A stretch of DNA of 64,000 bases, from the NCBI GenBank assembly GCA_903908245.1, contig CAIVRE010000006.1, positions 85,951-149,950 of the forward strand, read 5' to 3'. The translations under genes were made by a program, and so were the position numbers. Positions 11,785 through 56,603 of the stretch are shown here, one piece after another; within the stretch, counting starts at the first letter, position 1, and each line of letters begins with the position of its first letter. This DNA comes from Candidatus Omnitrophota bacterium. Its GTDB lineage: Bacteria > Omnitrophota > Gorgyraeia > Zapsychrales > Fredricksoniimonadaceae. Under the pieces are notes generated by a model that was given only the letters and a program-made list of their open reading frames with translations, was not told the DNA's origin and did no database searches.

Positions 11785-11802
11785 TGGCCCCTTAACCTTT
11801 AT

Positions 11803-13122: not shown

Positions 13123-13592
13123 CCCAGGCCGCTTCCAGGATCTGCCTTGCTGCCCAAAGGCTGGCACAACACGCCGGGCAATGCCTTTTCGTGACCCTCG
13201 GCCACGGCGGGTCCCCCAGGGCGAGATATATGGGCGCTTTAAAGGTCGACAACGGAATGAAGGTATTCCTGGTCTGCCGGCCCGGATCGAACAAAGTGCG
13301 GGAGATCGCCCGGGACCCCCGCGCGCAGGTCGTCCTTGCGGATGAGCCCCGTCGCCGGGTGGTCACGCTCAACGGGAACGCTTATCTGGAACGCTCAAGG
13401 ACCGTCCGCAAGAAACTTTTTACCGCTACGGCCCCTTTGAAATTGTATCCCGCCTTTAATAACGATTTCGGGGTGATCCGTTTCATCCCTGAAACACTGG
13501 AATATCTGGACCTGGATATCAGGCTTGAACCCGTCATCATTGACCTGACAGGGAGGCGCCATTGCTCGCCCAAGACACTAAAAACTTCCTGA
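13119..13592 (+). CDS. Pyridoxamine 5'-phosphate oxidase-like FMN-binding split-barrel protein.
   Basis: Its size of 157 aa and its sequence pattern are typical of PNPOx-like small flavoproteins. There is an ATGA start/stop overlap with the upstream gene. Confidence 0.55.
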   Translation: MTQAASRICLAAQRLAQHAGQCLFVTLGHGGSPRARYMGALKVDNGMKVFLVCRPGSNKVREIARDPRAQVVLADEPRRRVVTLNGNAYLERSRTVRKKLFTATAPLKLYPAFNNDFGVIRFIPETLEYLDLDIRLEPVIIDLTGRRHCSPKTLKTS

Positions 13593-15007: not shown

Positions 15008-15027
15008 AGACCGCGTCGGAAAACCTT

Positions 15028-17813: not shown

Positions 17814-17819
17814 AACCCG

Positions 17820-19133
17820 CTAACCGTTCCGCGCGGTAACCCGCTCGAATTTCTTCACCCATTTCCACTGCTCCTGCGCCGGGATCGACCCGGTGTAATA
17901 CGGCAGCGCCTCCGCATGATCCTCAAGCCAGTACGCTTCATCGAACCCCTCCCCAAGGGCGACGTCATATAACGGCGCCCCGGGCACGATCTCCAGCGGA
18001 TGCACCGCGAGAGTGATCCCGGGATGAAGCTTCCTGCACCCGATCAACGATTCCATCAGCGTTTCTTTGGTCTCCTGCGGAAATCCTACAATAAGGTTGA
18101 AATGAACCCTTATCCCCATCTCCGCTGTCAAATTGGCATTCGCGATAGCCACCTCGGGATCATACTCCTTATGGATCGAACGCAAGACAGTGCCGGAAAG
18201 CGACTCCACTCCGAACAGGATCATTTTGCAGCCCGCTTTCTTCATGATCTTCAAAAGCGGCTTGTCGATCAGATGGACCCTGGTCTGACAGCCCCAATGC
18301 AGATCCATGCCACTGGCAATGACCGCGGAACAAAATGCGCGCGTATACGCTTTATCCAACGTAAAGGTCAGATCCGGGAAAATAATATGCTTTCGATACG
18401 CTTCAGGAATAAGGCGGATCTGTTCTATGGCGCGCTCGACGCTTCTCTTGACGGTCTTCCGCCCCCAAAACCCGACGGCACTGCAAAAAAGACACACAAA
18501 AGGGCATCCGCGCGTTATTTCCACCGGTAATCCGGACAAAATATCTTCTTTTTCCCAGGATCGGCCCAAAGGCTGCAATTGATATTTGGAATAATCGATC
18601 AACGGGAATTCGTCAAGGCTCGCCACCCTGGCCCGAGGCGCTGTACGCATGACTTTCCCTGAATGAAGAAAAGAAATACCCCGGATCTTGCGCAGATCCT
18701 TTCCCTGCCGAAGGGCGTCGAGAAGATCAAGAAAAGTTATCTCCCCCTCGCCGCGAACAATATAATCCACATCCGGACAGGTGCGAAGGATCTGCCGGTC
18801 CAAACACGTCGCGTGAGCCCCCCCCAGGATCACCGTCACGGAAGGATCCAGGGCCTTCATCAATCGGGCCAGCTCCAGGCAGGCGAACCGATTATAAGAT
18901 ACGCAGGATAAACCGATCACGGAAGGCCGATTCGTCCGGAGAAATTCCTTTAACGCCGCGATGGAATAATCTCCCGATGAATACGGGATACAGGTTATAT
19001 CCGAATGATGCTCAACATATGCCGCGATCGATGCTATCCCAAGATCAATATGAAATGGCGGAACAACGGTCTCGTCGAACTTAAAGGACGGCAGCAGATG
19101 CCTGTCAGGAGGATTGAACAATACGACCCGCAT
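17820..19133 (-). CDS. B12-binding-domain radical SAM enzyme.
   Basis: TRGCPFVCLFC is present. It is a paralog of 16455-17813. Confidence 0.85.
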   Translation of the reverse strand: MRVVLFNPPDRHLLPSFKFDETVVPPFHIDLGIASIAAYVEHHSDITCIPYSSGDYSIAALKEFLRTNRPSVIGLSCVSYNRFACLELARLMKALDPSVTVILGGAHATCLDRQILRTCPDVDYIVRGEGEITFLDLLDALRQGKDLRKIRGISFLHSGKVMRTAPRARVASLDEFPLIDYSKYQLQPLGRSWEKEDILSGLPVEITRGCPFVCLFCSAVGFWGRKTVKRSVERAIEQIRLIPEAYRKHIIFPDLTFTLDKAYTRAFCSAVIASGMDLHWGCQTRVHLIDKPLLKIMKKAGCKMILFGVESLSGTVLRSIHKEYDPEVAIANANLTAEMGIRVHFNLIVGFPQETKETLMESLIGCRKLHPGITLAVHPLEIVPGAPLYDVALGEGFDEAYWLEDHAEALPYYTGSIPAQEQWKWVKKFERVTARNG

Positions 19134-20330
19134 TTAAATGGCCTTCCTTACTGCAGACGCCCCGCCGAACCACGCCCCCGGGATCTTGACCCCGGCCATA
19201 TCCTTACGCAACATCCTGACAAGCGCAGCGGCCATCCCCGAGGCTGAAAGCTGTTTGAACAAAAGGACTTCGCTGCGGATATGGTCGGACAATAAACGCG
19301 CCCGGGCCGGTTGTTCCCGGAAGTTCAGCGCCCCGCCATAACCTTCAAACGGAATGACCACCGCCCGCTTGGCATGCCTCAGCAAACTTAACGACGTATG
19401 ATACGGAGCCGGACAGATGCAGACATCACTCTCCGCAATAAGCTGGTCATAGCGGTCCGTCCACCTTACCAGACGGCCATTGGGCACTTTCTTCTTTGCC
19501 ATCAGTCCCTGGAACATCCGCCATTCCCCGTCAGTTGTCGACGGGCCGGCAACAAAGATATATTCATAGCCATCGCCTGAAATATCGCTGGCTTTAATGG
19601 CTGCCGCAATGATCTGCGGATAATACGCCCCGCCGCCGCGGACAACCGCCACCCGGACAACTCCCTTGCGGACAAATCCCGCCTTGCCTTCGCCCGGCTT
19701 GATCGCCGGAGCCTCAGGCACAAGATAGCCTGTAAAAACAACCTTGCGCTCGTTCTTCTTAAAGAATTCACGATACGCGCGCCGGCCAATTCCGGCAGGA
19801 TAAAGGCCGGACATATAATCCATTTCGATCCGCGGGCACAAAATAAAGATACGCTGATAAAGGCTCAGGATGAAGTCCAGCGAACGCCCTCGTCGGGCGG
19901 TCAACAGCGGGTATCCGGCAATGGAGAAGAGCGGGACTTTCTGCGAAGATAATGCCATTAAGGAAGGCAACAACTCGTCACGGCACTCGCCGCGGCCCAA
20001 CGGAAAAAATTCTGTAACAAAGACACCCGGCTTTGCCTGTTGAACAATATCCAGGCATTCCTTCGCCCGGATGGCAGAAGAAAAAGGATCTGCGGCCGCC
20101 GGATACCTGAAATTCGCCCGGCTGTTAAATGGCCGGCTCAAGGAATGCACCACCCCCGACCGGTCAAGGCTGGCCGCCGGCTGGTCACAGCCGCCCTGAA
20201 TAAAAAAGAAGTTCCTTTGAGGGAACTTCTCTTGATATATCCCGGCGAACGCCGCTACACGCGACGTATGCCCAAAACATTCGTAATGAGTATAATAAAC
20301 CCCGATCGTCTTGCGCAAGGGTGATCCATT
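19134..20330 (-). CDS. GT-B fold glycosyltransferase (GT1/MGT/GT28-like). The start is uncertain; the track ORF reaches 20432, but that extension overlaps the peptide gene in another frame, so a TTG start near 20330 is proposed.
   Basis: The N-terminus has KTIGVYYTHYECFGHTSRV, resembling the GT-B N-terminal glycine/His motif. The C-terminus has ESDVCICPAPYHTSLSLLRHAKRAVVIPF, typical of the GT-B donor-binding domain. Confidence 0.5.
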   Translation of the reverse strand, partial: NGSPLRKTIGVYYTHYECFGHTSRVAAFAGIYQEKFPQRNFFFIQGGCDQPAASLDRSGVVHSLSRPFNSRANFRYPAAADPFSSAIRAKECLDIVQQAKPGVFVTEFFPLGRGECRDELLPSLMALSSQKVPLFSIAGYPLLTARRGRSLDFILSLYQRIFILCPRIEMDYMSGLYPAGIGRRAYREFFKKNERKVVFTGYLVPEAPAIKPGEGKAGFVRKGVVRVAVVRGGGAYYPQIIAAAIKASDISGDGYEYIFVAGPSTTDGEWRMFQGLMAKKKVPNGRLVRWTDRYDQLIAESDVCICPAPYHTSLSLLRHAKRAVVIPFEGYGGALNFREQPARARLLSDHIRSEVLLFKQLSASGMAAALVRMLRKDMAGVKIPGAWFGGASAVRKAI

Positions 20331-20340
20331 GGTCAACACT

Positions 20341-20595
20341 TCAATAAGAAGTATGTGACGCCGTATTCGTATGATCAAAACAACCCGCGGTCGTCTGAAG
20401 GCTGTTCGCGTGGTTCGTATGGTCTCCCGCACTCGCGTTAAAAGCCGCGCCCAGCGCCGCCATTCCGGCTACCGTGGACAATCCCACCTTAAGGATCGTC
20501 TCCTTGCTGACAAACCCGTCCTCATCCATCACAAACCCCTTAAGGCTTTTAACAACATCATCCTTCTTAAGAAGTCTTTTTTTCTTGAGCGCCAT
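20341..20595 (-). CDS. Candidate RiPP precursor peptide of 84 aa with a C-terminal His-Xaa-(Ser/Thr/Asn)-rich core.
   Basis: The sequence is MALKKKRLLKKDDVVKSLKGFVMDEDGFVSKETILKVGLSTVAGMAALGAAFNASAGDHTNHANSLQTTAGCFDHTNTASHTSY. A strong Shine-Dalgarno, GGAAGGAAAG, lies 4 nt upstream of the ATG. It overlaps the 3' end of the SPASM rSAM gene by 29 nt, on the same strand. Residue use is atypical for an enzyme: K-rich N-terminus, hydrophobic middle, H/T/N/S-rich tail. Confidence 0.5.
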   Translation of the reverse strand: MALKKKRLLKKDDVVKSLKGFVMDEDGFVSKETILKVGLSTVAGMAALGAAFNASAGDHTNHANSLQTTAGCFDHTNTASHTSY

Positions 20596-21988
20596 AACGC
20601 TTTCCTTCCGTCCAGCGGTTGAAGATATCGGCTTGGTCCCCGCCTTCGATCAGGCGGCTGAAAATATGCTCGTACTGAAACGCCTGTATCTTCTGCATTG
20701 ACGAACAGGCGGTTTTTGGAACGATGTTCTTCTGCTCGGCATAATTGACCACCGGGCAATACCCCATCCACGGGCTGAACACGGAACTGTAATGCCAAAG
20801 ATTCACGCAGGAAGCCTGCAACAGATTGAGCAGGTTTTCCTTATTAAGTATAGCATCAAATTCCTCATTCACAATATTCCCCAGCTTGAACATTTCCTCC
20901 CCCAGCATCCGCGCCTCGTCACACGGATAGGCACTGCCGTCCGGCATATACACCATCGTGGAACGGCCGGCCCCGCATGGGCTCATCATATCCACATAAC
21001 CCGGGTCTCTTTTGGCCAGGACCTTGGTAAGGATGACCCGCGCAACACGTTCGCTCAAGTGCCGCCCCTGACGGTTGATCTTGATGATATGCTCAAATCC
21101 GCGTTGATAGAAATCACAAAATTCTTCCGGTGTGACCCCGATATCCCGCCAGGAACAACGCGCCGATCCCATGCAATTCGCAGGCCGAAGCGATATCTCT
21201 TCCTGCCCCAGGCTCACATACTCATCAATGATCCGTTCAGGATGCGCCAGGGAATGTTTGGTGATCGTGGGCAACAGCGTGACTTTCCGGCCAAATTTAT
21301 CCTTGAACCGCCTGATCCTGGCAACCACCTCGCTGTAAGTCCCGCGGCCCTCTATGTCCACCCGATTACGGTCATGAATGTCTTTCGGGCCATCCAGCGA
21401 AGAACAGACATCCACATCGTGTTTGGCCAGGAATGCCATTTTTTTGTCATCCAGGAGCATCAAATTGGTCACCAGCACCAGCTGAAGTTTCTTGCCCAGT
21501 GTGTTGAACTTGCGGGCATTCACGACCAGAAGCTCCAGCACCGGCCAATTGAGCACCGGCTCACCGCCCTGGAATTCCAGGACGACCGATGGATTGGCGA
21601 CATCAAAAAGATATTTCAGCACGCGCCCGGCCACCTCGATCGTCATATCCTGCGATAAAGTGCCTCCTTCTGCCTGGCAATAGGAACACCGCAGATTACA
21701 GCGTTTTGTCAGCACGGCAATATGCAATGAGGTGTCTGTAAAGAGATTGGCGTTCAGGGACCGGAACCCGGTAATGACATCCGCGATGTTCGACTGATCC
21801 ACGACGATCCCGCGCGTGCGCAGGCGTTGGGCAAGGGCATCGGAAGACTTAAGGCGCAAGGCATTCAGCTGCCGGAATTCGGCAGGGGTCAGCGCATCCC
21901 AGCACCCCATCATATTGCTGACAAGGTATTTCCCGTTGATCTTCGCGGAATTGAACGGCAGGATAACAATATCATTTTCGTTCTTCAT
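20567..21988 (-). CDS. Radical SAM/SPASM enzyme (anSME-like) with a ~100-aa N-terminal extension, possibly a peptide-recognition (RRE-like) domain. It is the candidate maturase for the adjacent peptide.
   Basis: LTKRCNLRCSYCQAEGG is present. The C-terminus has multiple Cys (C..C...CSSMQ), consistent with SPASM. It is 473 aa. Confidence 0.85.
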   Translation of the reverse strand: MKNENDIVILPFNSAKINGKYLVSNMMGCWDALTPAEFRQLNALRLKSSDALAQRLRTRGIVVDQSNIADVITGFRSLNANLFTDTSLHIAVLTKRCNLRCSYCQAEGGTLSQDMTIEVAGRVLKYLFDVANPSVVLEFQGGEPVLNWPVLELLVVNARKFNTLGKKLQLVLVTNLMLLDDKKMAFLAKHDVDVCSSLDGPKDIHDRNRVDIEGRGTYSEVVARIRRFKDKFGRKVTLLPTITKHSLAHPERIIDEYVSLGQEEISLRPANCMGSARCSWRDIGVTPEEFCDFYQRGFEHIIKINRQGRHLSERVARVILTKVLAKRDPGYVDMMSPCGAGRSTMVYMPDGSAYPCDEARMLGEEMFKLGNIVNEEFDAILNKENLLNLLQASCVNLWHYSSVFSPWMGYCPVVNYAEQKNIVPKTACSSMQKIQAFQYEHIFSRLIEGGDQADIFNRWTEGKRYGAQEKKTS

Positions 21989-38647: not shown

Positions 38648-40981
38648 TTATTTAAAATTGATCTGCCCGCTGCCATCGACAGGCTGGGAATGATCATAAT
38701 AAACATCATCCACAGGAACAGGCTGACGCTGCGGTTGCGGATCAATGCTGCGGGCCGTCTCGACCAAACTGACAAATTCGGCGCGCAGCCCTTCGGGATC
38801 GTTCCCGATATTGTTACGGGCATTGCTCAGGACATGCTCATAGGACGCATACCCCCTGTTGTCGGAACCGCGCAACAGCATCCCGAACTCCGCCACGGAA
38901 GTCGCCCAGGCGAAATCCCCCTTGGGATACGGGGCATAATCCCCGCGTTTCACTGTTTTAGCGATAAGCTTGCTGGTATTCCCGTCGGGATCCTTATAAC
39001 GGAGCTTCACCGTAGCGATCTCACTGTTGTTCCCCGGACGGGTAACGATCAAAGGCTTCTGCCGGTATTTGAGCGGATCAACATTCGGGCCGACAGAAGA
39101 CGGCCATTCGAAACTCCCTGCCGGAACGATCTCATAAAGCGCGGTCACGGTATGCCCCGCGCCGATCTCGCCGGCATCTTTCCTGTCATTATTGAAGTCT
39201 TCCTTGGCCATCACGCGCTTCTCGTAACCGATCAAACGGTAGGACTTGACCAGCGCCGGATTGAATTCGACCTGGATCTTCACATCCTTGGCGATCGTAA
39301 AAAGCGTTGATCCAAGCTCACTCACCAGGACCTTGCGGGCTTCCTGCAAGCTGTCGATATAAGAATAATTGCCGTTCCCCTTGTCGGCAAGGGCCTGCAT
39401 GCGATTATCCTTGAGGTTAGCCTCGCCAAAACCAAGCACCGTCAGAAAAATACCGTCACGACGACGCTCCTCGATCATCCGCTCCAGTTCCGTGACGCTG
39501 GAAGCTCCGACATTGAAATCCCCGTCGGTCGCCAGGATAACACGGTTATTCCCACCCGGGATAAAACTCTGCCGGGCCACCTGATACGCCAGCTGGATCC
39601 CCTCACCACCGGCCGTAGAACCTTCGGCACGTAAACTTTCGATGGCCCCGATGATACTGCGCTTGTCCGCTCCCGTGGTGGGTGCAAGCAACTGATGGGC
39701 ACTGCTGGCATAAAACACGATAGAAACATAATCTTGCGGACGAAGCTGCTGGACCATCATCTTGAGGCCTTCCTTGAGCAGGGGCAGCTTGTTCGCGTCC
39801 GCCATTGACCCCGACACGTCGATCAGAAAAACCAGGTTACTGGACGGGAGGCTTGATCCGGACGGGACCTTTCCTTTCAGGCCAATCCGCATCAGCTGAT
39901 GGCCGGGCGCCCACGGGCAGGCCGCGAGGTCGGTCGTAATAGAGAACGACTGGCCGAACCAGGGCTGAGGATAATCGTAAGAAAAATAATTGACCATTTC
40001 CTCAATGCGCACAGCATCCTCAGGTGGCATCTGGCGCTGGGACAAAAAGCGGCGGACATTGCTGTAAGACGCCGTATCAACATCAGCCGAGAGCGTGGAG
40101 AGCGGGTCATTCGCCGCGTCAAAGAAAGAATTCTCCTCGATCCGCTTGTACTCCTCGGTATTGCCCGGGGCATACTGGATATTCTGGCTGGACGGATAAT
40201 ATTCCCGCGAATACGCCTGGACCAAAGACCGGTCATACGCCATCCGGGAACCATCCACATTCCCGCCATACCCATACCCGTTTCTCGCCATCGGCATGGA
40301 CTTGGCGCTAAGTTCGGCGTCCGCGAAAGCAGCACGATTATTAACAACACTCGTAGAATAATACGGCTCATACTGCACGCTTTTCCCCGCAACGGACGCA
40401 AGCGCGACCACATTCCCCTTCTCCTGCAATGCCCCGGAACCCCAAGAACCACGGCGGACATCCTTATCCTTCCTGAAAGAAGAAGTGGCAAATTGATCCC
40501 CTATATCATCCGAAGACGACTTCAACCTTCCCTGAACACCCCGGCTTAACATATTCGGCATCCAGTCGACCGCCTCGCTTTTCTTGAACGCGATCTGTTC
40601 CTGCGGTTTCATCGGGACCGCGGCCGTCATCTCGATCGTTGAGGCATCCCTCAAACGGCCCTGTATCCCATGACGCGCATAATTATCAAATACCAACACC
40701 ACGACCAATACGGTCGCGGCCACAGCGGCACCTTTTTTCCAATAAGCTGGTTTCATACTTCCCTCCTTGTGGACTGCTGCAAAGACCTTAAGTTCTGCAT
40801 CGGGAGAGAGAGTTTCATCGGGTATCATTCCCAAAGACGAGGATATTTTCCTGAGCTCTTCGAAATAAGTCCGGCATTCGGCCCGTTCAAGCAAAAGCTT
40901 CTCGGCCTGGGCGGCTTCCTCGGGGGAAACCTCTCCATCGGCATAAGCAGAGAGCAGTATTTTCCAGTCTTGAGCGTTCAT
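38648..40981 (-). CDS. Anti-sigma factor / von Willebrand factor type A fusion (YfbK-like) membrane protein.
   Basis: The N-terminal anti-sigma motif YADGEVSPEEAAQAEKLLLERAECR is followed by a TM segment. The VWA MIDAS region VFLIDVSGSM...TAGGEGI is present. There is a 4-nt overlap with the ECF sigma gene. Confidence 0.7.
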   Translation of the reverse strand: MNAQDWKILLSAYADGEVSPEEAAQAEKLLLERAECRTYFEELRKISSSLGMIPDETLSPDAELKVFAAVHKEGSMKPAYWKKGAAVAATVLVVVLVFDNYARHGIQGRLRDASTIEMTAAVPMKPQEQIAFKKSEAVDWMPNMLSRGVQGRLKSSSDDIGDQFATSSFRKDKDVRRGSWGSGALQEKGNVVALASVAGKSVQYEPYYSTSVVNNRAAFADAELSAKSMPMARNGYGYGGNVDGSRMAYDRSLVQAYSREYYPSSQNIQYAPGNTEEYKRIEENSFFDAANDPLSTLSADVDTASYSNVRRFLSQRQMPPEDAVRIEEMVNYFSYDYPQPWFGQSFSITTDLAACPWAPGHQLMRIGLKGKVPSGSSLPSSNLVFLIDVSGSMADANKLPLLKEGLKMMVQQLRPQDYVSIVFYASSAHQLLAPTTGADKRSIIGAIESLRAEGSTAGGEGIQLAYQVARQSFIPGGNNRVILATDGDFNVGASSVTELERMIEERRRDGIFLTVLGFGEANLKDNRMQALADKGNGNYSYIDSLQEARKVLVSELGSTLFTIAKDVKIQVEFNPALVKSYRLIGYEKRVMAKEDFNNDRKDAGEIGAGHTVTALYEIVPAGSFEWPSSVGPNVDPLKYRQKPLIVTRPGNNSEIATVKLRYKDPDGNTSKLIAKTVKRGDYAPYPKGDFAWATSVAEFGMLLRGSDNRGYASYEHVLSNARNNIGNDPEGLRAEFVSLVETARSIDPQPQRQPVPVDDVYYDHSQPVDGSGQINFK

Positions 40982-41559
40982 TGGCCTTCCTCCGTGATCA
41001 TCGGGCCCAGTTCCTCCCGCAGCCGTTCACGGCCGCGGAAGATCAGGACCTTGACCTTTTCGAGCGAACATTCCAGGATCTGGGCGATCGCGGCATAATC
41101 CTTCTGAAAATATTCCCTGAGGATCAATGCCTCTTTCTGCTCGACCGGCAGCTTGAAAAGCGCCTGCCTGACCACTTGCGCTAATTCCTTCTTTCCGAGT
41201 TCAGCGCCCGGTGGTGCACTGTCATCGGGGATATCCCATTGCTTATATCCGCCATCGGCATTATCCTTGAACCACAAGGATACAAAATGTTTTGCCGAGC
41301 GCATCCGTGACAGGCAGGCGTTCCTGGCTACCGTAAAGAGCCAGGTCACAAGCTTGGCCCTTCCGTCATCCTGGAACTTTCTGTTAAAGAGCTGGACGAA
41401 CACGTCACTGGTGACATCCTCCGCATCCGCGCGGCTTCCTGTCAGGCGAAAGGCAAAGTTGAAGATCCTGCCCTTGTGCCTCTGGAAGAGCGCCTCGAAG
41501 GCGCCTGCATCACCCGAATTGTAACCGAGCCACAATTCTTCGTCCGTTTGTTCCATCAT
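40978..41559 (-). CDS. ECF-subfamily RNA polymerase sigma-70 factor.
   Basis: Region 2 (FEALFQRHKGRIFNFAFRLTG) and region 4 are present. It is 193 aa. Confidence 0.85.
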   Translation of the reverse strand: MMEQTDEELWLGYNSGDAGAFEALFQRHKGRIFNFAFRLTGSRADAEDVTSDVFVQLFNRKFQDDGRAKLVTWLFTVARNACLSRMRSAKHFVSLWFKDNADGGYKQWDIPDDSAPPGAELGKKELAQVVRQALFKLPVEQKEALILREYFQKDYAAIAQILECSLEKVKVLIFRGRERLREELGPMITEEGQ

Positions 41560-46452: not shown

Positions 46453-46480
46453 TTGACAACCACCCGAACTCACTTATAAT
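46453..46480 (+). promoter_or_regulatory. Near-consensus sigma70 promoter (TTGACA, 16-nt spacer, TATAAT) 40 nt upstream of the carrier-protein gene.
   Basis: ttgaca accacccgaactcact tataat. Confidence 0.55.
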
Positions 46481-46519
46481 TTTTTATATCTTTTAAAAAT
46501 ATTTAAAGGAACACTGCCC

Positions 46520-46825
46520 ATGTCCCCCAGAGAAGCTGTCATTTCCGCTATCAAGACCGCGATCAATGATATCAACGAAACACTCCCCCGCGACCGGAAG
46601 ATCGGTCTGGCCGATGATGCAGCGCTCTACGGACCGGCAGGCGTGATCGATTCCCTCACGCTCACGCTTTTGATCGTGGCCGTTGAGCAGAAGATCGAAC
46701 AATCCCTCCACCGGACCATCAGCCTGGTGGACATGTCGATCGTCACCGAAGACAACAACGCTTTCAGGAATATTGCGACCCTGGCCAGCCACATCCTGTC
46801 GCTCATCGGGCCCAACGATCAATGA
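46520..46825 (+). CDS. Small carrier protein (acyl/D-alanyl carrier protein-like, DltC-like).
   Basis: It is 101 aa with GVIDSLTLTLLI, a DSL phosphopantetheine-attachment Ser motif. It is co-located with an MBOAT. Confidence 0.6.
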   Translation: MSPREAVISAIKTAINDINETLPRDRKIGLADDAALYGPAGVIDSLTLTLLIVAVEQKIEQSLHRTISLVDMSIVTEDNNAFRNIATLASHILSLIGPNDQ

Positions 46826-48504
46826 GCGGACCCGTCAGCGGCCTCATCCTCTCGGATTTCACGATCGACACCCTCAAGGCGTACCTGGTCAATTCCATAC
46901 AACAGCCTCAGTGTGCGATCACGACCGGCCCTTACGGCCAGGTCATTCCGCTCCTGAACAGCAATAATGATGCCGTCTGGGCCGGCCGCCCCGACTTCAC
47001 CATCGTCTGGACACAAATATCGAACTCCGTCCCTTCATTTCAAAAGCTCCTGGCCTTCGAACCCGTCGCCGAAGAACAGCTCGTCAAGGAATGCGACCTT
47101 TTCATCGATGCCGTCCAAAGCGCTGCCCGACGGACGCGTTTTCTATTCGTCGCCTCCTGGACACTGCCTGCCTTCCTGCGCGGTTACGGCCCTATCGACC
47201 ATAAGGCCGGAGGCTGGCAAAGCACGCTTCTGACACTGAACAAAAGAATGGCCGACCAGCTTTCCGGCAGCCCGAATATTTTTATCCTTAACACCGCGGC
47301 CTGGGCACAAACCGTCGGCGAAAACGCCTTTAATCCCAAGCTGTGGTATTTAAGCAAGATCCCTTTTGATCCGGCCGTGTTCAAGCTGGCCGCACAGGAC
47401 ATTAAAGCCGCCATGCTCGCCTGTCTGGGCAAAAGCCGCAAGCTGATCATCGTGGACCTGGACGACACCCTGTGGGGCGGGACCGTGGGCGAGACCGGAT
47501 GGCCGGAACTCAACATCGGCGGGCACAATGCGGCCGGCGAGTCCTACACGGATTTTCAGCGGGCGCTCAAAGCACTCAAGAATCGCGGCATTATCCTCGG
47601 GATCGTCAGCAAGAATGACGAAACCGTGGCATTGGACGCTATCGACAAACACCCGGAAATGATCCTGCGGCGCAGTGATTTCGCCGGCCGGCGCATTAAC
47701 TGGAAAGATAAGGCAGAGAATATCATATCCCTTCTTGCCGAACTCAACCTCGGGACTGACAGCGCCGTCTTTATTGACAACAACCCGGCGGAACGCGACC
47801 GTGTCCGCCAGGCACTGCCGGATGTCCTTGTGCCTGACTGGCCACAACACAGCCTTTTATATACCAAAGCCCTTTCATCCCTCTCCTGCTTCGATACGAT
47901 CTTTATCGGCGACGAGGACCGCGCCCGCGCTCAAATGTACAGCACCGAGAATCAGCGCCGGGAGATCCGCGCGCAAGCCCAGGATATCCATGAATGGCTC
48001 AAAAGCCTTGATATCAGGGTCACTGTCGAAAAACTTAACGCCGGCAACCTTCCCCGGGCAGCTCAATTGCTCAACAAAACCAGCCAGATGAACCTTGCGA
48101 CCCGCCGCCTCAGCGAACAGGAATTTTGGGCCTGGGCCCAAAAACCGGAGCATGCCGTCTGGACATTCCGCGTTAAAGATAATCTGGGCGACTCGGGATT
48201 GACCGGGATCATCAGCCTGGAACAGGAAGGCCACAAAACCAGGGTCATCGACCTGGTCTTAAGCTGCCGGGTATTCGGGCGACAGCTGGAAAATGTCATG
48301 GCCGCGGTCCTTATTGACCACGCGGCAAAACAGGGCGCCGCCGCCATTACCGCGCACTATATTCCGACGGAAAAGAACGCGCCATGCCTGGAGTTCCTGC
48401 GCGACCGCTCGGGATTTACCCCCCTGCCGGACAACACTTTTCAATGGGACACCCGAAAACCTTACCCCCATCCTTCCATGATCACGGTGCAGCATGAAGG
48501 ATAA
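46822..48504 (+). CDS. FkbH-like HAD-IIIC domain protein.
   Basis: LIIVDLDDTLWGG is a HAD motif I of the FkbH type. It is 560 aa with extra N- and C-terminal domains. There is an ATGA overlap with the carrier protein gene. Confidence 0.6.
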   Translation: MSGPVSGLILSDFTIDTLKAYLVNSIQQPQCAITTGPYGQVIPLLNSNNDAVWAGRPDFTIVWTQISNSVPSFQKLLAFEPVAEEQLVKECDLFIDAVQSAARRTRFLFVASWTLPAFLRGYGPIDHKAGGWQSTLLTLNKRMADQLSGSPNIFILNTAAWAQTVGENAFNPKLWYLSKIPFDPAVFKLAAQDIKAAMLACLGKSRKLIIVDLDDTLWGGTVGETGWPELNIGGHNAAGESYTDFQRALKALKNRGIILGIVSKNDETVALDAIDKHPEMILRRSDFAGRRINWKDKAENIISLLAELNLGTDSAVFIDNNPAERDRVRQALPDVLVPDWPQHSLLYTKALSSLSCFDTIFIGDEDRARAQMYSTENQRREIRAQAQDIHEWLKSLDIRVTVEKLNAGNLPRAAQLLNKTSQMNLATRRLSEQEFWAWAQKPEHAVWTFRVKDNLGDSGLTGIISLEQEGHKTRVIDLVLSCRVFGRQLENVMAAVLIDHAAKQGAAAITAHYIPTEKNAPCLEFLRDRSGFTPLPDNTFQWDTRKPYPHPSMITVQHEG

Positions 48505-50158
48505 TCCCGGGCCTTTTGCCTTTCTGCCCGAAGGCTGGGCCTGGCACGCCGAACTCGATGTCACCGACGAAATTATCCGTGCCTTCAGCCGCCTTACCTC
48601 CGATGCCAATGCCCTGCATATGGACAGCACCGCGGCCAGCGCCTTTCCTTACCGTCAACGTGTCGCCCACGGGATGCTCCCGGTCAGCCTGCTTTTATTA
48701 TCCGGACCGCTGACGTTAAAAGGCGCTGTCATCCAAAAAATTGCGGGGCGCTTCAACCATCCGGTCTTTATGGGTGACAGGGTCGCCGTTGACCTCGCCC
48801 TGATGACCACCGACACCATCGGCGATACACAAACCTTCAGTTACACGATACACACCTCCTCGATCCGGGAGAACGCGACTTACGGCGAGATCACGATCAG
48901 GCCAGGCCACCATGCCACCGGCACCGAACAAACAGCGCCCTCCCTCATTACTGTCCCGCTGGAGGAGCACACCCTGGAATTTGCATCGATCACCAAAGGG
49001 ATGTCGCAGCAGATCCCGTTCGTCATTGCGCCGCAACTGTTGGCCGAATGGACCGGCCTCCTTAAAGAACATGCCTGTCCCGGCACGCTGCCCTGCGAAG
49101 GCAATGCGCCGTCACCCGAACTTGCCGCCGCCCTGCTCTCATCAACCCTGGTGGGAATGCGCCTGCCTGGAAAACTGGCCACATTCCTGGATTTCAGCTT
49201 CACCTTTCAGGCCCCTCTGGCCGTACTTTCCGCCTACACCCTCGAAGGCTCGGTGGACTTCATTTCCGCCTCAAACCAGATTATCGTTGAAAACATCAGT
49301 ATCTATGATAAGAATACTACTCATAAACTTATGCAAGGAAAGATCACGGTCAAAATGAACGAACAGTCCATCCCGGCCCCCACCATGAAAGACCTGACAA
49401 CAGACCTTGGCCTCAACGGAAAGACCGTGCTCATCACCGGCGCAAGCCGCGGGATCGGCGCCACCACGGCCAGGCTTTTTGCCTGCCATGGCGCGAAGGT
49501 CATCGTCAACTACCATCAAAGCCAGGCCGAAGCGGATGCTGTCGTCAAAGATATCGTCGCAAACGGCGGGAAAGCACTCGCGGTCAAAGCGGATGTGACC
49601 CAGCGCGAACAAGTCAAGGCGCTTTTTGAACAGGCCCGCAAAACCTTCGGGAATGTGGACATCCTGGTGAACAATGCCGTCGGAGATTTTCTCGCCATTC
49701 CTTTCCAGGCCCTCACATGGGAGAGGCTACAACAGGATATTGATATCATCGTCAAGGGCGCGTTCAACTGCTGTCAGGAGGCGATCCCCTCCATGATACA
49801 ACAGAAGCAGGGCCGCATCATCAATGTGGTGACCATCGCGACCGAAACGCCTCCGCCGAATCAAAGCAAATATGTGATCGCCAAAAGCGCGCTGGTAGGA
49901 CTCACGCGCAGCCTGGCGTCCGAACTCGCCGGCCACAATATCCTGGTGAATATGGTCCTGCCGGGGATGGTGGAAACCGACCTTACCAAGACGATCCCGC
50001 CGGCGGTCCGCGACAAGATCAAGAACTATATCCCGCTGGCCAGGCATGCATCGACCGTTGACGTCGCCAAAGCCATCGTGACACTGGCCAGTTCATTAAC
50101 GCCCTACACAACAGGGCAAAAAATACTCGTGACCGGCGGACTTCCGCCTTTTATTTAA
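48494..50158 (+). CDS. MaoC-like (hotdog) dehydratase fused to a short-chain dehydrogenase/reductase (FabG-like).
   Basis: The N-terminus has hotdog-fold motifs. The C-terminus has VLITGASRGIGATTARLFACHGAKVIV...NAVG...YVIAKSAL, i.e. Rossmann TGxxxGxG and the YxxxK catalytic pair. Confidence 0.7.
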   Translation: MKDNPGPFAFLPEGWAWHAELDVTDEIIRAFSRLTSDANALHMDSTAASAFPYRQRVAHGMLPVSLLLLSGPLTLKGAVIQKIAGRFNHPVFMGDRVAVDLALMTTDTIGDTQTFSYTIHTSSIRENATYGEITIRPGHHATGTEQTAPSLITVPLEEHTLEFASITKGMSQQIPFVIAPQLLAEWTGLLKEHACPGTLPCEGNAPSPELAAALLSSTLVGMRLPGKLATFLDFSFTFQAPLAVLSAYTLEGSVDFISASNQIIVENISIYDKNTTHKLMQGKITVKMNEQSIPAPTMKDLTTDLGLNGKTVLITGASRGIGATTARLFACHGAKVIVNYHQSQAEADAVVKDIVANGGKALAVKADVTQREQVKALFEQARKTFGNVDILVNNAVGDFLAIPFQALTWERLQQDIDIIVKGAFNCCQEAIPSMIQQKQGRIINVVTIATETPPPNQSKYVIAKSALVGLTRSLASELAGHNILVNMVLPGMVETDLTKTIPPAVRDKIKNYIPLARHASTVDVAKAIVTLASSLTPYTTGQKILVTGGLPPFI

Positions 50159-50160
50159 TT

Positions 50161-51597
50161 ATGCTTTTTAATTCTTTCGAATTCGCCGTCTTCTTCCTGA
50201 TCGTTCTCGGCCTTTACCGCGTCCTGCCTCACCGCGGGCAGAACATCATGCTGCTCGTGGCCAGCTATGTGTTCTACGCGTCCTGGGACTGGCGTTTTGC
50301 TCCGCTGATCTTCTTATGCACGGCCGCCTCATACATTTGCGCCGGTCAAATATTCAAAAGCAGCAACAACACCCATCGCCTCTGGTGGCTGATCGCGAGC
50401 CTGACGGTCAATCTCGGGGTCCTCGGATTCTTTAAATACTGTAATTTCTTTCTGGAGAACCTAAGCGGGCTTCTGGGATTATTCGGGGTAAAAACAGCCA
50501 TCCCCGCGTTATCGATTATTTTACCGATGGGCATATCCTTCTTTACATTCCAGGCGTTAAGCTACACCATCGACATTTACCGCCGGACACTCAAGCCAAT
50601 GGGGACATTCTGGGATTTCGCCCTGTTCAAGGCCTTCTTCCCGCTGTTAATGGCAGGGCCCATTGAGCGTGCGTCGCACCTCCTGCCCCAGGTGGTAAGT
50701 CCACGGCGCCAGGACCTCAGCGGATTCAAACAAGGCGGATACCTCATCTTCCTGGGATTATTCCAGAAGATCTTCGTAGCCGACAATCTTGCCAGGATCG
50801 TCAACCCCGTATTCGCTGACCCGGCTTCTTTTCAGGCGGTGGACATCTTAGTCGCCATCTATGCATTCACGTTCCAGATCTTCTGTGATTTCGCCGGCTA
50901 CAGCAACATCGCCCGCGGGCTGGGTGCTGTCCTCGGGTTCAGGATCATGGTCAACTTTAACGTGCCATTCTTCGTCACCAATGTCCAGGAATTCTGGAAC
51001 CGCTGGCATATCAGCCTCAGCTCCTGGATACGCGATTATCTGTATATCCCTTTAATGGGGACCCTGCGCAAGATCCCCGGCAATGCCCGTGTTTATATTG
51101 CCTTAATGATCTCCATGTCCCTCATCGGCCTTTGGCACGGAGCCTCCTGGCATTTTGTGGTATTCGGAATGTATTACGGCGCGCTGTTGATCCTTTATAT
51201 CATCATCCGCGGACGCTTCAGCCGCCTGATCGACCCGAAGTCGGCGGCCGGCCAGGCCATATGGTTCTGGGCACGGGTCCTGTTCATGTTCAACATCACG
51301 GCCTTCGGGATGATGCTCTTCCGCGCCAGATCAATGGCGCACGCGGGGACCATCCTCTCTTCCTTGTTCGCTTTCACCGACCCGTCGCTGGTCCGCTGGG
51401 ACTTCCTGTCAAGCGCACTGGGCTTCGCGGCGCCGGTCATTCTTCTTCAATACGGAGAATTCCGGTTCAAGAACATTTTCTTCATCATTGAAAAAACGCA
51501 CTGGGCCGTTCGCCTGGCCATCCTGGCATTAATGGCCTACATGATGTTCGGCTGGGGCGTCATGACCGCGGAAGAATTTATTTATTTTCAATTCTAA
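50161..51597 (+). CDS. MBOAT-family membrane-bound O-acyltransferase (DltB/AlgI-like).
   Basis: It is polytopic. The conserved His region WHISLSSWIRDYLY is present. The N-terminus resembles AlgI/DltB. Confidence 0.85.
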   Translation: MLFNSFEFAVFFLIVLGLYRVLPHRGQNIMLLVASYVFYASWDWRFAPLIFLCTAASYICAGQIFKSSNNTHRLWWLIASLTVNLGVLGFFKYCNFFLENLSGLLGLFGVKTAIPALSIILPMGISFFTFQALSYTIDIYRRTLKPMGTFWDFALFKAFFPLLMAGPIERASHLLPQVVSPRRQDLSGFKQGGYLIFLGLFQKIFVADNLARIVNPVFADPASFQAVDILVAIYAFTFQIFCDFAGYSNIARGLGAVLGFRIMVNFNVPFFVTNVQEFWNRWHISLSSWIRDYLYIPLMGTLRKIPGNARVYIALMISMSLIGLWHGASWHFVVFGMYYGALLILYIIIRGRFSRLIDPKSAAGQAIWFWARVLFMFNITAFGMMLFRARSMAHAGTILSSLFAFTDPSLVRWDFLSSALGFAAPVILLQYGEFRFKNIFFIIEKTHWAVRLAILALMAYMMFGWGVMTAEEFIYFQF

Positions 51598-51615
51598 CGA
51601 GCAAAGGCCGGAACA

Positions 51616-52926
51616 ATGAAAAGTGCACTGACCATCCTCAAATACACGCTCTGTTTCCTTCTTTTCCTGGAAATGTTCCTCTGGATCGGCAGCTTCATCA
51701 CCCAGGGCACCCAGAAAATGGCCAACTCACGGCAAGCGGCCTCGAACAGCACCTACAAGATCATTTGCGTCGGCGAATCCAACACCCTCGTTGGCGGCCC
51801 GGACTCCTATCCCAGCCAGTTACAGGCCATCCTCAATGAACGCCTCCCGGGGCGGAATATCCAGGTCATCAACCAGGGAATGGCAGGCTACAGCACGGCC
51901 AGGATCGCCCAGGAACTGCCACAGTGGATCAATACCATGAAACCCGACATGGTCATCGCGATGATAGGGATATTTGACGGAGAGCAAGCCCGGAGAGACA
52001 CCGTCAAAAGCTCATCCCCCTTTGGGTTGCTCCAGAACGCCAAGCTTTACCAGCTCATGATCCAACTGCAAAAAAAGATATCCGCCTCCCTGCAGGCGTA
52101 TGTTCAACGGCAGCAGCAGCAATTCCACGCCAAAGCCAAAGAACAAAACGCCAGCATGACAGAACATGAGATGTTCCAGGACGCAATGAAAAATGCCTCC
52201 GACGACCTGAGAAAAATATATATGTTGATCGCCCTCACGGAAGGCAACGAAAAATATGAAATGGCCGACCAGCTCTATGCAAAATTCTTCGAGATCAACA
52301 AGGATCCCGTCATCCGGGGCTGGGTCATCAAACAATACGGGCGCTTCCTGATGAAGGCCAAGCTCTATGAGAAATTCGTTGATGTCATGGAAAACATCCC
52401 GGCCAACGCCTGGTCCATGGAATGGGTCCGGGGCTATTGCACCAGCGAAGAACATGTCAACAAAGTCAGGATGGTGATCGAACGGAAAGTCAAAAAAACG
52501 AACGATACGGAAAGCTACGGCTATGTTGCCGCCTGCCTGGAAATGAACGGACAAAAAGACCTGGCCAATGCGTTCATTAAGGAGAAAATGGGGACCTTCA
52601 ACGACACCTACGCGGCCCCCGGAACACGTAAAAGCTACCTGGAGGTCAAGGACCTGCTGATCTCAAAACAAATACAGCCCGTGTTCGTCCAATACCCGCT
52701 GCGCGATATCCAGCCGCTGATGTCCATATTCGGATCCCAGCCCGACAAAGACCGGATCATTTTTGTGGATAACGGCCCGGTATTCAAGAAAGCCGTGGCC
52801 GCCAGTTCCTATTCCACCTATTTCAAAGACCGGGCCTCGGGAGATACCGGCCACGCGATGCCGGCGGGAAACCATCTGCTGGCCCAGAATATCGCCGACA
52901 CGATCGTTCCATATTTGAGCAAATAA
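51616..52926 (+). CDS. Membrane-anchored SGNH/GDSL-like hydrolase/acyltransferase domain protein. It is the probable extracytoplasmic partner of the MBOAT (DltD/AlgJ/PatB-like role).
   Basis: An N-terminal TM segment is present. YKIICVGESNTL is SGNH block I, with Ser in a GxSN context. Confidence 0.45.
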   Translation: MKSALTILKYTLCFLLFLEMFLWIGSFITQGTQKMANSRQAASNSTYKIICVGESNTLVGGPDSYPSQLQAILNERLPGRNIQVINQGMAGYSTARIAQELPQWINTMKPDMVIAMIGIFDGEQARRDTVKSSSPFGLLQNAKLYQLMIQLQKKISASLQAYVQRQQQQFHAKAKEQNASMTEHEMFQDAMKNASDDLRKIYMLIALTEGNEKYEMADQLYAKFFEINKDPVIRGWVIKQYGRFLMKAKLYEKFVDVMENIPANAWSMEWVRGYCTSEEHVNKVRMVIERKVKKTNDTESYGYVAACLEMNGQKDLANAFIKEKMGTFNDTYAAPGTRKSYLEVKDLLISKQIQPVFVQYPLRDIQPLMSIFGSQPDKDRIIFVDNGPVFKKAVAASSYSTYFKDRASGDTGHAMPAGNHLLAQNIADTIVPYLSK

Positions 52927-52930
52927 AAAA

Positions 52931-53004
52931 CGTCATCCCGCGGCCGGATGGCCGAGGGATCTCAAGGGTTGATCTTGAGACCCCTCACTTCGTTCGGGAT
53001 GACG
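52931..53004. repeat. Compound inverted-repeat element between convergent genes. Its 3' arm (52982-53004) is repeated at 61813-61835.
   Basis: The outer arms are cgtcatcccg...cgggatgacg. The inner arms are gagggatctcaag / cttgagacccctc. The small hairpin cggcc ggat ggccg is also present. Confidence 0.6.
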
Positions 53005-55809: not shown

Positions 55810-55837
55810 TTGACAAGACATCCACAATGCTTATAAT
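55810..55837 (+). promoter_or_regulatory. Near-consensus sigma70 promoter (TTGACA, 16 nt, TATAAT) upstream of the GT2 gene.
   Basis: ttgaca agacatccacaatgct tataat lies ~60 nt before the ATG at 55899. Confidence 0.5.
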
Positions 55838-55898: not shown

Positions 55899-56603
55899 AT
55901 GAAGGTCACCCTCGTTATCCCGGTATTGAATGAGATCACAGGCATGAAAGCGATCATGCCCCAGATCAAGAAAGAATGGGTCGACCAGATCCTCTTCATC
56001 GATGGGCAGTCAACCGACGGCACCATTGAATACCTCAAGGAGAACGGCTACGAATATGTGGTGCAGAAAAAAAGGGGTATGCGCAACGCCTATATGGAAG
56101 CCCTGCCCTACATCAAGGGCGATGTGATCCTGACATTCAGTCCCGACGGGAACTCGGTTTCCGAATTGATCCCGGCCTGCATCGCGAAAATGAAAGAAGG
56201 CTACGACATGGTCATCGTCTCGCGCTACGCGCCCGGGGCAAAAAGCCTGGACGACGACATCATTACCGGGTTCGGTAACTGGCTGTTCCGCACGCTCATC
56301 AGCGTATGTTTCGGCCACCGTTACCACGACCCGATGGTCATTTACCGTGCGTACCGCAAGGACCTCATCCAGGAGCTGGATCTCGATAAAGACAGCAGCT
56401 TTGAAAAGGAAGAAAAACTTTTCAGCACGAATGTGAGCTGGGAACCCCTGCTCTCGATCCGCGCGGCCAAACGCAAACTCAGGATCGGAGAGATCCCGGG
56501 TGACGAGCCGGCACGCATCGGCGGAGAACGCAAACTTCAGATCTGGCGCTGGGGCGCCGTCTTCATGTACCAGGTCATCCGCGAAATGTTCGTGTGGAAG
56601 TAA
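55899..56603 (+). CDS. Family 2 glycosyltransferase (polyprenyl-phosphate sugar transferase-like).
   Basis: VTLVIPVLNE...FIDGQSTDGT carries GT2 N-terminal DxD-type motifs. It is 234 aa. Confidence 0.8.
   Translation: MKVTLVIPVLNEITGMKAIMPQIKKEWVDQILFIDGQSTDGTIEYLKENGYEYVVQKKRGMRNAYMEALPYIKGDVILTFSPDGNSVSELIPACIAKMKEGYDMVIVSRYAPGAKSLDDDIITGFGNWLFRTLISVCFGHRYHDPMVIYRAYRKDLIQELDLDKDSSFEKEEKLFSTNVSWEPLLSIRAAKRKLRIGEIPGDEPARIGGERKLQIWRWGAVFMYQVIREMFVWK

Follow-up and report, generated by a model that had tools for sequence, protein, structure and literature searches.

A predicted carrier-protein-fed O-acylation operon pairing an FkbH-family loader with a membrane-bound O-acyltransferase in a Candidatus Omnitrophota genome

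Within a 64,000-nucleotide stretch of contig CAIVRE010000006.1 (Candidatus Omnitrophota, assembly GCA_903908245.1), hereafter the window, five co-directional open reading frames (ORFs) at 46520–52926 of the plus strand encode a carrier-like protein, an FkbH-family protein, a fusion of a MaoC dehydratase with a short-chain dehydrogenase/reductase (SDR), a membrane-bound O-acyltransferase (MBOAT), together with an SGNH-fold protein. We consider it probable that this operon specifies a carrier-protein-fed, transmembrane O-acylation pathway that is built like the Dlt system, although both its loader and its acyl group differ. A Dlt-like O-acylation machinery had been proposed in an original prediction from the sequence. 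That interpretation is supported here: the modifiable serine of the carrier protein, the catalytic residues of the FkbH-family protein and the co-conservation of the genes were each checked and each was found. In the ORF listing of the window the genes occupy 46520–46825 (101 aa), 46822–48504 (560 aa), 48494–50158 (554 aa), 50161–51597 (478 aa) and 51616–52926 (436 aa). Taken in order, neighbouring genes overlap by 4 nt (ATGA) and by 11 nt and are then separated by 2 and 18 nt, packed as in a translationally coupled operon.

The components recur together in distant genomes. We examined 80 species-level genome loci of FkbH relatives, further loci reached via identical proteins and 80 metagenome loci of SGNH relatives (loci are numbered L001 onwards). 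ORFs of the fetched loci were labelled with phmmer and hidden Markov models, and the counts given here were made over 79 species-level FkbH loci. The nearest relatives are metagenome-assembled genomes (MAGs) labelled Candidatus Omnitrophota. An acyl carrier protein (ACP) gene lies within 5 kb of the FkbH gene in 58/79 loci, and an MBOAT gene does so in 18/79, spread over many phyla; all but one of these (17/18) also have an ACP. We estimate that chance alone would put an MBOAT gene this close (within 5 kb) to a given gene in well under 1% of genomes. MaoC and/or SDR genes are also present in 7 of the 18 FkbH-MBOAT loci and absent from the other 11.

The order found in the window is repeated in L001, L087 and L091. 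L085 is arranged ACP-FkbH-MBOAT-SGNH-MaoC/SDR, such that the MBOAT and SGNH genes are placed inside the acyl-carrier module, and in L099 an ACP-FkbH-MaoC/SDR unit is divergent from an MBOAT-SGNH pair. L088 has ACP-FkbH-MaoC/SDR-MBOAT followed by an LB_356-family protein, a different SGNH-like partner, and L086 has ACP-FkbH-MBOAT-DUF1574 without MaoC/SDR. The same components are therefore found in at least four gene orders. Moreover, split-gene versions exist in loci whose FkbH and MBOAT proteins have diverged to 31–40% and ~30% identity, respectively. Two Clostridium MAGs (L051 and L060) carry MaoC (L051 only), SDR, FkbH, an ACP scoring above the PP-binding cutoff, MBOAT and an N-terminally anchored GDSL/SGNH protein. 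A Nitrospinaceae MAG (Nitrospinota, L081) carries ACP-MaoC-SDR-FkbH-MBOAT with an anchored 388-aa protein, and FkbH-ACP-MBOAT cores were found in several further phyla. A Micrarchaeota MAG (L064, 707–3954) has, in a row, an MBOAT of 390 aa lacking the C-terminal tail described below, an AcpS gene (PF01648, 9e-18) and FkbH. Three other loci (L005, L030 and L034) have ACP-FkbH-MaoC/SDR but no MBOAT; a gene for a GNAT acyltransferase comes next instead. These arrangements fit a view of ACP-FkbH(-MaoC/SDR) as an acyl-carrier donor module serving alternative transferases, of which MBOAT plus SGNH is the trans-membrane version; both the GNAT-following loci and the natural FkbH fusions described below fit such a plug-in module.

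The first gene (46520–46825, +) had been predicted to encode a small DltC-like carrier protein. As a single sequence its product gives no Pfam, NCBIfam or useful PDB match; streptokinase, the sole PDB match of that search (E 0.78), was discarded as a chance match. The protein is not at the PF00550 gathering score and the Pfam PP-binding model gives no match to it. An exhaustive search recovered a family of ~100-aa proteins comprising 1,231 representative clusters at E≤1e-3 that is unannotated in Pfam and NCBIfam. Ser45, situated in an IDSL motif (nt 46646–46657), is the sole invariant column in an alignment of 129 relatives. When the family profile was searched against the PDB, 31 sequences were matched at E≤1, of which 29 are deposited as ACP, peptidyl carrier protein (PCP) or DltC, the two that bear other names being ranked first and third; the best E-values were 0.002–0.01, with DltC chains among the best matches. 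An hhalign comparison with canonical PP-binding ACPs of distant FkbH-MBOAT loci gave E 3.6e-5 with the serines aligned, and Ser45 also aligns with the phosphopantetheinyl Ser of solved ACP and DltC chains. Weak PP-binding matches (best 0.0011) were obtained for 11/129 relatives and no other Pfam family recurs. At the level of profiles, then, the product is predicted to be a divergent carrier protein, at best a divergent PP-binding member, with Ser45 as the predicted phosphopantetheine site. The DltC-like assignment stands as a profile-level likeness to ACP and DltC chains, but not as a PF00550 match of the protein's own.

The identity of the second protein (46822–48504, +) as an FkbH-type HAD-IIIC protein was borne out by scores of 280.1 bits against TIGR01686 (cutoff 146.65) and 63.6 bits against TIGR01681 (cutoff 35.75). 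It comprises an FkbH_N-like N-terminal domain, a HAD-IIIC phosphatase domain and a GNAT-like C-terminal domain; one relative (P0020) has a Pfam FkbH_N match plus a weak GNAT match in its C-terminal third. None of the HAD motifs (D212-L-D214-D-T216, S263-K-N at 263–265, K297 and D319) varies among 26 relatives with identities as low as 47%. Three cysteines, C356, C482 and C522, are also invariant. The sole solved FkbH relative is 3SLR (BF1531 of Bacteroides fragilis, from structural genomics), matched at 3.4e-44 over residues 136–362. By analogy with characterised FkbH enzymes (PMC7489565; Dorrestein 2006 as cited in PMC5318452), the protein is predicted to load glyceryl from 1,3-bisphosphoglycerate onto the carrier protein. 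It is a bona fide member of the FkbH family employed outside any assembly line. Natural fusions of FkbH occur among its relatives, including an 881-aa FkbH-MaoC protein (P0111) and hexapeptide-repeat transferase-FkbH proteins of 748–818 aa (P0069; P0088 and P0116 are also among the fusion proteins).

The third protein (48494–50158, +) is, as predicted, a fusion of a hotdog dehydratase with an SDR, matching PF01575 MaoC_dehydratas at 1.4e-11 and adh_short at 9e-54. A double hotdog occupies residues ~1–300 and a FabG-like SDR residues ~305–554. A hydratase-2-like motif, S-D37-A-N-A-L-H42, is present in the first hotdog half; among 13 relatives at least 85% keep its D and H. In NCBIfam the hotdog part comes closest to enoyl hydratases and to the HadA/HadB (3R)-hydroxyacyl-ACP dehydratases. 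The SDR half bears TGASRGIG (315–322), NNAV (393–396) and Y460-x3-K464; it scores 210 bits against TIGR01830 (FabG), which is below cutoff, as it is for every FabG equivalog. By analogy with these families we predict that the fusion protein tailors the carrier-bound acyl group by dehydration followed by keto-reduction.

The fourth gene (50161–51597, +) encodes a polytopic MBOAT (PF03062, 2.9e-18; hydrophobic segments mapped) with conserved WNRWH (279–283) and LWHG (324–327) motifs, and the same protein is found at 100% identity on metagenome contigs. Its sole solved sequence homologues are DltB chains (1e-33, with the catalytic His of WHG aligned), than which it is ~55–85 residues longer. It scores only 175.8 bits against TIGR04091, the DltB equivalog, where the cutoff is 375, and is therefore a homologue of DltB and no orthologue. 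The protein terminates in FIYFQF (F-x-Y-x-x-F, residues 473–478; codons at 51577–51594, +), of which Tyr475 is the predicted acyl acceptor. This FxYxxF tail is kept in 116/120 MBOAT homologues and in most FkbH-linked MBOATs of distant phyla. A separate microprotein resembling DltX may serve the short MBOATs found in L052, L055 and L064. In the Dlt route the acyl group passes from DltC through DltB to the Tyr of the C-terminal FxYxxF of DltX, then to the Ser of DltD and on to lipoteichoic acid; PatA, AlgI and others instead bear FxYxxF at their own C-terminus and use acetyl-CoA as donor, with the Tyr of PatA passing the group to the Ser of PatB and thence to peptidoglycan (PMC12148441). The MBOAT/SGNH pathways other than Dlt operate without a carrier protein (PMC12148441). 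The window system is thus a hybrid: its MBOAT is of PatA/AlgI type, with the Tyr shuttle fused to it, while its carrier protein is Dlt-like. Accordingly, the description of this protein as DltB/AlgI-like holds for its family and its DltB homology, but its tail places it with PatA and AlgI.

The fifth gene (51616–52926, +) had been read as encoding a membrane-anchored SGNH-like protein. Pfam gave sub-threshold matches only (NonGDSL 8e-10, Lipase_GDSL_2 4e-6) and no match to PF04914 (DltD). The AlphaFold model (pLDDT 82.7) has the SGNH fold: top Foldseek matches in the PDB are SGNH esterases, with DltD (6pfx) at rank 23, and the matches include thioesterases (TesA, for example) as well as esterases. 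At the N-terminus the protein has one hydrophobic segment, a transmembrane helix at residues ~3–30, which would place the bulk of the protein outside. A helical insertion derived from tetratricopeptide repeats (TPR) at ~125–345 (~220 residues) splits the fold; it dominates the search of the family profile against the PDB, which is uninformative on affinity to DltD or PatB. Hence fold and anchor of the earlier description stand, but the protein is not of the DltD family and carries a TPR insertion inside the fold. S55, G53, D121, D405 and H413 are invariant in 28 SGNH relatives, and the predicted catalytic residues are Ser55 (in GESNT), His413 and Asp405/Asp410. The block III Asn, an oxyanion-hole residue, is replaced by Phe120 in the window protein (GIFD, residues 118–121, nt 51967–51978). 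This position is F, Y, L, I or M in 11 of the 13 closest members, the window protein included, and Asn in 15/15 distant ones. For at least 7 of the 11 members with a hydrophobic residue an MBOAT homologue is encoded on the same contig, gene context not having been determined individually for the 15 that keep Asn. Hydrophobic patches shield the acyl-enzyme in PatB (PMC12148441), and by analogy the substitution may mark transferase over hydrolase activity. Distant SGNH-TPR relatives also occur as tandem paralogue arrays, up to four in a row with no MBOAT nearby (L165, 8935–15318; L152; L104/L105; L121), mostly on metagenome contigs of Omnitrophota or Planctomycetes-Verrucomicrobia-Chlamydiae (PVC) type.

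From these parts we infer the following sequence of events. The FkbH enzyme would take 1,3-bisphosphoglycerate and its HAD domain would remove the 3-phosphate, yielding glyceryl bound as a thioester to the carrier's phosphopantetheine arm at Ser45. The MaoC hotdog would then dehydrate this 3-hydroxyacyl thioester across C2–C3 to an enol-pyruvoyl form that tautomerises to pyruvoyl-carrier, and the fused SDR would reduce the 2-keto group to give lactyl-carrier protein. Glyceryl-ACP belongs to the 3-hydroxyacyl thioesters, the class of substrates on which MaoC/HadAB dehydratases act. The acyl-carrier would dock at the cytoplasmic face of the MBOAT, which would transfer the acyl group to the outer-face Tyr475 of FIYFQF with His326 and Tyr475 taking part. 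The anchored, periplasmic SGNH protein would take the group on Ser55 and form an ester with a hydroxyl of an envelope polymer, presumably a glycan and possibly a periplasmic glucan, lipopolysaccharide (LPS) or peptidoglycan. In loci without MaoC/SDR, glyceryl would be transferred instead. That the MBOAT is fed by the carrier protein we think probable; that the group transferred in the window organism is lactyl is a more tentative proposal.

Several observations weigh against this scheme. The window itself holds no clue to the acceptor, the neighbours of the operon being housekeeping genes, one GT2 gene and a radical-SAM array. The AlphaFold model of the carrier, made from a single sequence, has a pLDDT of 49 and is unusable, and for the catalytic Cys of the FkbH protein there are three candidates, C356, C482 and C522. 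At the usual position of the SDR catalytic Ser the window protein has Thr (Ser or Thr in relatives). The searchable papers give no characterised FkbH relative outside polyketide or nonribosomal peptide synthetase (NRPS) pathways, and the glycerate substrate is therefore extrapolated here. The dehydratase (DH) and ketoreductase (KR) pair of FR901464 consists of domains of polyketide synthase (PKS) type, not of MaoC/FabG type, making the chemistry analogous and not homologous. Across the 80 metagenome loci most distant SGNH-TPR relatives adjoin no MBOAT, so that the SGNH family as a whole is no marker of the system. Lastly, MBOATs ~50% identical to that of the window occur without FkbH or ACP within 7–9 kb (L089, L090 and L092), in two cases with an SGNH-like partner (L090 and L092) and in the third beside an unannotated 333-aa neighbour only (L089). 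Dependence on a carrier is therefore not intrinsic to this MBOAT clade, whose donor may be acyl-CoA, as it is for PatA.

The same carrier-fed MBOAT-SGNH pathway might transfer something other than lactyl, namely a glyceryl, pyruvoyl or 2-hydroxy-3-oxopropionyl group or one derived from a substrate other than 1,3-bisphosphoglycerate, with the MaoC-SDR protein performing other chemistry such as 3-OH oxidation or epimerisation. L086 and most of the distant FkbH-ACP-MBOAT loci lack MaoC/SDR (11/18), and it follows that an untailored group, presumably glyceryl, is transferable. FabG-like SDRs normally act at C3, and methoxymalonyl-ACP pathways oxidise glyceryl-ACP at C3 with no dehydration (PMC7489565). 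However, oxidation in that manner depends on two enzymes absent here, an acyl-CoA dehydrogenase of FkbI type and an FkbG methyltransferase, and a MaoC/HadAB-type dehydratase acting on a 3-hydroxyacyl thioester should, from the chemistry, give the pyruvoyl enol directly. A DH-plus-KR route to lactyl-ACP moreover has precedent: FkbH loading modules with these two domains yield the lactyl starter in FR901464-type PKS, according to PMC7901079 (Zhang 2011, as encoded there). The pairing in such modules is the one placed in our scheme after the FkbH step. He et al., in Angew Chem in 2014, reportedly found that the DH dehydrates glyceryl-ACP and the KR reduces the alpha-ketone. On balance we regard a non-lactyl group as a somewhat unlikely alternative.

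A further possibility is that the operon houses two independent activities, the MBOAT-SGNH pair being an acetyl-CoA O-acetyltransferase of the kind of PatA/PatB or AlgI/AlgJ/AlgX while ACP-FkbH-MaoC/SDR supplies an acyl group to another enzyme, encoded elsewhere, for use on that glycan or a different one. The FkbH-free relatives of the MBOAT favour this, as does its fused FxYxxF tail, which is that of the acetyl-CoA-using PatA class and not of DltB plus DltX; the ACP-FkbH-MaoC/SDR module is, moreover, also paired with other transferases such as GNAT. Against it stand the adjacency of FkbH and MBOAT in the 18 loci noted above, nearly all with an ACP, the insertion of MBOAT and SGNH between FkbH and MaoC/SDR in L085, and the AcpS gene lying between MBOAT and FkbH in L064. 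Within the window the operon has translational coupling throughout and contains no other acyltransferase to use an acyl-carrier protein. We therefore consider two separate activities unlikely.

Still less probable, in our assessment, is that the operon makes or remodels a membrane lipid or small secreted metabolite, the MBOAT acylating a lipid or small-molecule hydroxyl and the SGNH protein serving as an esterase or thioesterase. MBOATs do acylate small molecules in some FkbH-containing natural-product clusters, such as those for suomilide and varlaxin (PMC10143770), the SGNH fold matches are esterases and thioesterases as noted, and the window offers no glycan-synthesis context. However, neither operon nor window contains a PKS, NRPS or ketosynthase, and an MBOAT with FxYxxF plus an anchored SGNH protein is the signature of polymer acylation systems (PMC12148441). 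The block III Asn is exchanged for a hydrophobic residue in the MBOAT-linked SGNH subgroup, which by the PatB analogy we read as transferase-like. Related loci lie among glycosyltransferases, polysaccharide deacetylase, a GH94 cyclic-glucan-synthase-like gene and GT-C/PMT genes. Specifically, L086 has glycosyltransferases and a polysaccharide deacetylase as neighbours, and L087 has AsmA and a PMT/GT-C gene. In L088 (3240–15434) the cassette lies directly upstream of a 2,933-aa Glycoamylase/GH94 protein resembling cyclic beta-1,2-glucan synthase, and periplasmic cyclic glucan is a possible candidate acceptor in that organism. We treat these glycan-related neighbours as leads to the acceptor only. 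In L092 (711–10245) the MBOAT is flanked by three SGNH-type genes and stands beside a NodU/CmcH-type carbamoyltransferase and a PMT_2 GT-C glycosyltransferase; PMT/GT-C genes are near the MBOAT in L087 and L090 too. Two other candidates were ruled out. A true Dlt operon was rejected since none of the five genes encodes a DltA and the MBOAT falls short of the DltB cutoff; for a pathway to methoxymalonyl-ACP or a tetronate, FkbG/I/K, a FabH-like enzyme and a PKS are missing.

Carrier-fed transmembrane O-acylation, the reading we prefer, resembles Dlt in that one operon encodes a small carrier protein whose Ser is the predicted phosphopantetheine site, along with an MBOAT and a putative SGNH-fold transferase anchored in the membrane. 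The logic would also be shared, running from cytoplasmic acyl thioester through MBOAT, Tyr and SGNH Ser to polymer. The analogies drawn earlier to the Dlt and AlgI systems are apt, and the PatA systems can be set beside them. In place of the DltA ligase, however, the window has an FkbH/HAD-IIIC loader: as had been noticed, no adenylating DltA is encoded among the five genes, and no AMP-binding/adenylation (DltA-type) domain was found in their products, the rest of the window not having been searched exhaustively. The window system differs further from Dlt in having a dehydratase-reductase tailoring enzyme, in fusing the shuttle Tyr to the MBOAT with no separate DltX microprotein, and in an SGNH partner with a TPR insertion and without PF04914. 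Its host is diderm (an Omnitrophota relative) and has no teichoic acids, and its acyl group would be a neutral hydroxyacyl where that of Dlt is cationic.

With PatA/PatB, AlgI/AlgJ/AlgF/AlgX and WssH/WssI the operon shares an MBOAT of ~470–480 aa with a C-terminal FxYxxF, and with the PatAB/AlgI type a putative SGNH-fold transferase that would lie outside the cytoplasm, held by a single helix at its N-terminus. The structural hallmarks of PatAB/AlgI-type pairs are all present, namely the MBOAT His and FxYxxF and an adjacent SGNH protein with Ser-His-Asp, and the hydrophobic substitution near the oxyanion hole recalls the hydrophobic patches of PatB. Those systems, however, use acetyl-CoA and no carrier (PMC12148441), whereas the window adds a co-operonic carrier, loader and tailoring enzyme. 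Like the FkbH/OzmB/Tmn16-type glyceryl-ACP loaders, the operon has a TIGR01686 domain above cutoff beside a dedicated carrier protein, and like FR901464/bryostatin-type FkbH-DH-KR loading modules it has a dehydratase and a ketoreductase next to FkbH. It differs from these loaders in lacking a PKS/NRPS, a ketosynthase, a FabH-like tetronate enzyme and the FkbG/I/K set, and in a carrier that belongs to a divergent ~100-aa family unseen by Pfam PP-binding. Its dehydratase is MaoC-type and its reductase FabG-type in place of PKS DH and KR, and its product would go to a membrane acyltransferase and not to an assembly line. A Dlt-like use of a carrier protein on an envelope molecule is known in a Gram-negative bacterium from AlmEFG, which modifies lipid A with glycine in Vibrio cholerae. 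There AlmE is a DltA-like ligase and AlmG an LpxL-type acyltransferase of the cytoplasmic face, and no MBOAT, SGNH or FkbH protein takes part. We found no description of a carrier-fed FkbH-MBOAT-SGNH system in the searchable papers; to judge from titles and the beginnings of abstracts, the papers listed on FkbH appear to deal mostly with natural products. Four points go beyond the original prediction: the Tyr-shuttle motif fused to the MBOAT, the prediction of lactyl, an SGNH partner split by a TPR insertion and occurrence across a wide range of phyla.

The operon is preceded by the sigma-70 type promoter that had been described as textbook, TTGACA-N16-TATAAT at 46453–46480 (+), with 12/12 consensus matches. 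Perfect TTGACA-16-TATAAT sites occur twice in the 64-kb window against 0.01 expected from 100 shuffles. In the orthologous operon of L001, whose FkbH is 69% identical, the two hexamers and the 16-nt spacer are identical and the surrounding sequence has diverged, marking the promoter as a conserved feature and no chance match. A putative Shine-Dalgarno sequence, AAAGGAA at 46505–46511 (+), is found 8 nt 5' of the first ATG. Comparison of L001 7664–7701 with window 46453–46522 shows that the carrier-gene ATG of L001 begins 8 nt past the −10 hexamer, which implies a leaderless mRNA or another start; the window has an extra A/T-rich leader of ~30 nt with the Shine-Dalgarno. Directly 3' of the last stop a GC-rich hairpin lies at 52934–52950. 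As its T-run is on the minus strand only, this hairpin probably terminates the convergent cysK gene, though it may also end the operon. Rfam and tRNA scans gave no match within or near the operon.

Around the operon the window encodes an SNF2 helicase, cysK, a pyridoxal-phosphate (PLP) enzyme of Cys/Met type and an Rrf2 regulator. The GT2 gene (55899–56603) is 3 kb downstream, and the second perfect TTGACA-16-TATAAT site lies ~60 nt upstream of it at 55810–55837 (+). The radical-SAM array, a dense run of seven genes on both strands at 10354–21988, shows no evident connection with the operon. B12-binding domains are present in three of the seven, a SPASM domain in one and a HemN_C-like tail in one, and a 432-aa ORF of the array has no Pfam match. 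On the minus strand at 38648–41559, a gene for an extracytoplasmic function (ECF)-type sigma factor (40978–41559) lies beside one for a 777-aa protein that combines an N-terminal zf-HC2 anti-sigma motif with vWA and YfbK_C domains.

Acylation of envelope polymers affects resistance to lysozyme and cationic peptides, the properties of biofilm matrices, and recognition by phages and the immune system. To our knowledge, the only donor types of MBOAT-SGNH systems are acetyl-CoA and D-alanyl-DltC. A third, a hydroxyacyl carrier protein derived from glycolysis, is suggested by the operon described here together with its relatives, which occur in many uncultured phyla, in Clostridia and in a DPANN archaeon. 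Although we would put it at slightly less than an even chance, there may be a second, widespread carrier-dependent MBOAT-SGNH pathway besides Dlt in which FkbH diverts 1,3-bisphosphoglycerate and glyceryl or lactyl esters are installed on extracytoplasmic polymers, an optional dehydratase-reductase turning glyceryl into lactyl, in hosts that include diderm bacteria, Clostridia and a DPANN archaeon. If true, this would predict a chemically detectable modification of the envelope by lactyl or glyceryl esters, the biosynthesis of which is not described in the searchable papers, and envelope glycans would for the first time have an enzymatic route to decoration with glycerate or lactate esters. 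Acyl-carrier proteins would then be among the donors that PatA/AlgI-type MBOATs can accept when their Tyr shuttle is fused, and the FkbH-linked and FkbH-free members would provide a natural test of how an MBOAT chooses between CoA and carrier-protein donors. Moreover, it would give a function to a very large family of proteins annotated as 'HAD-IIIC family phosphatase' and to the ~100-aa family of ~1,200 clusters to which the carrier protein belongs.

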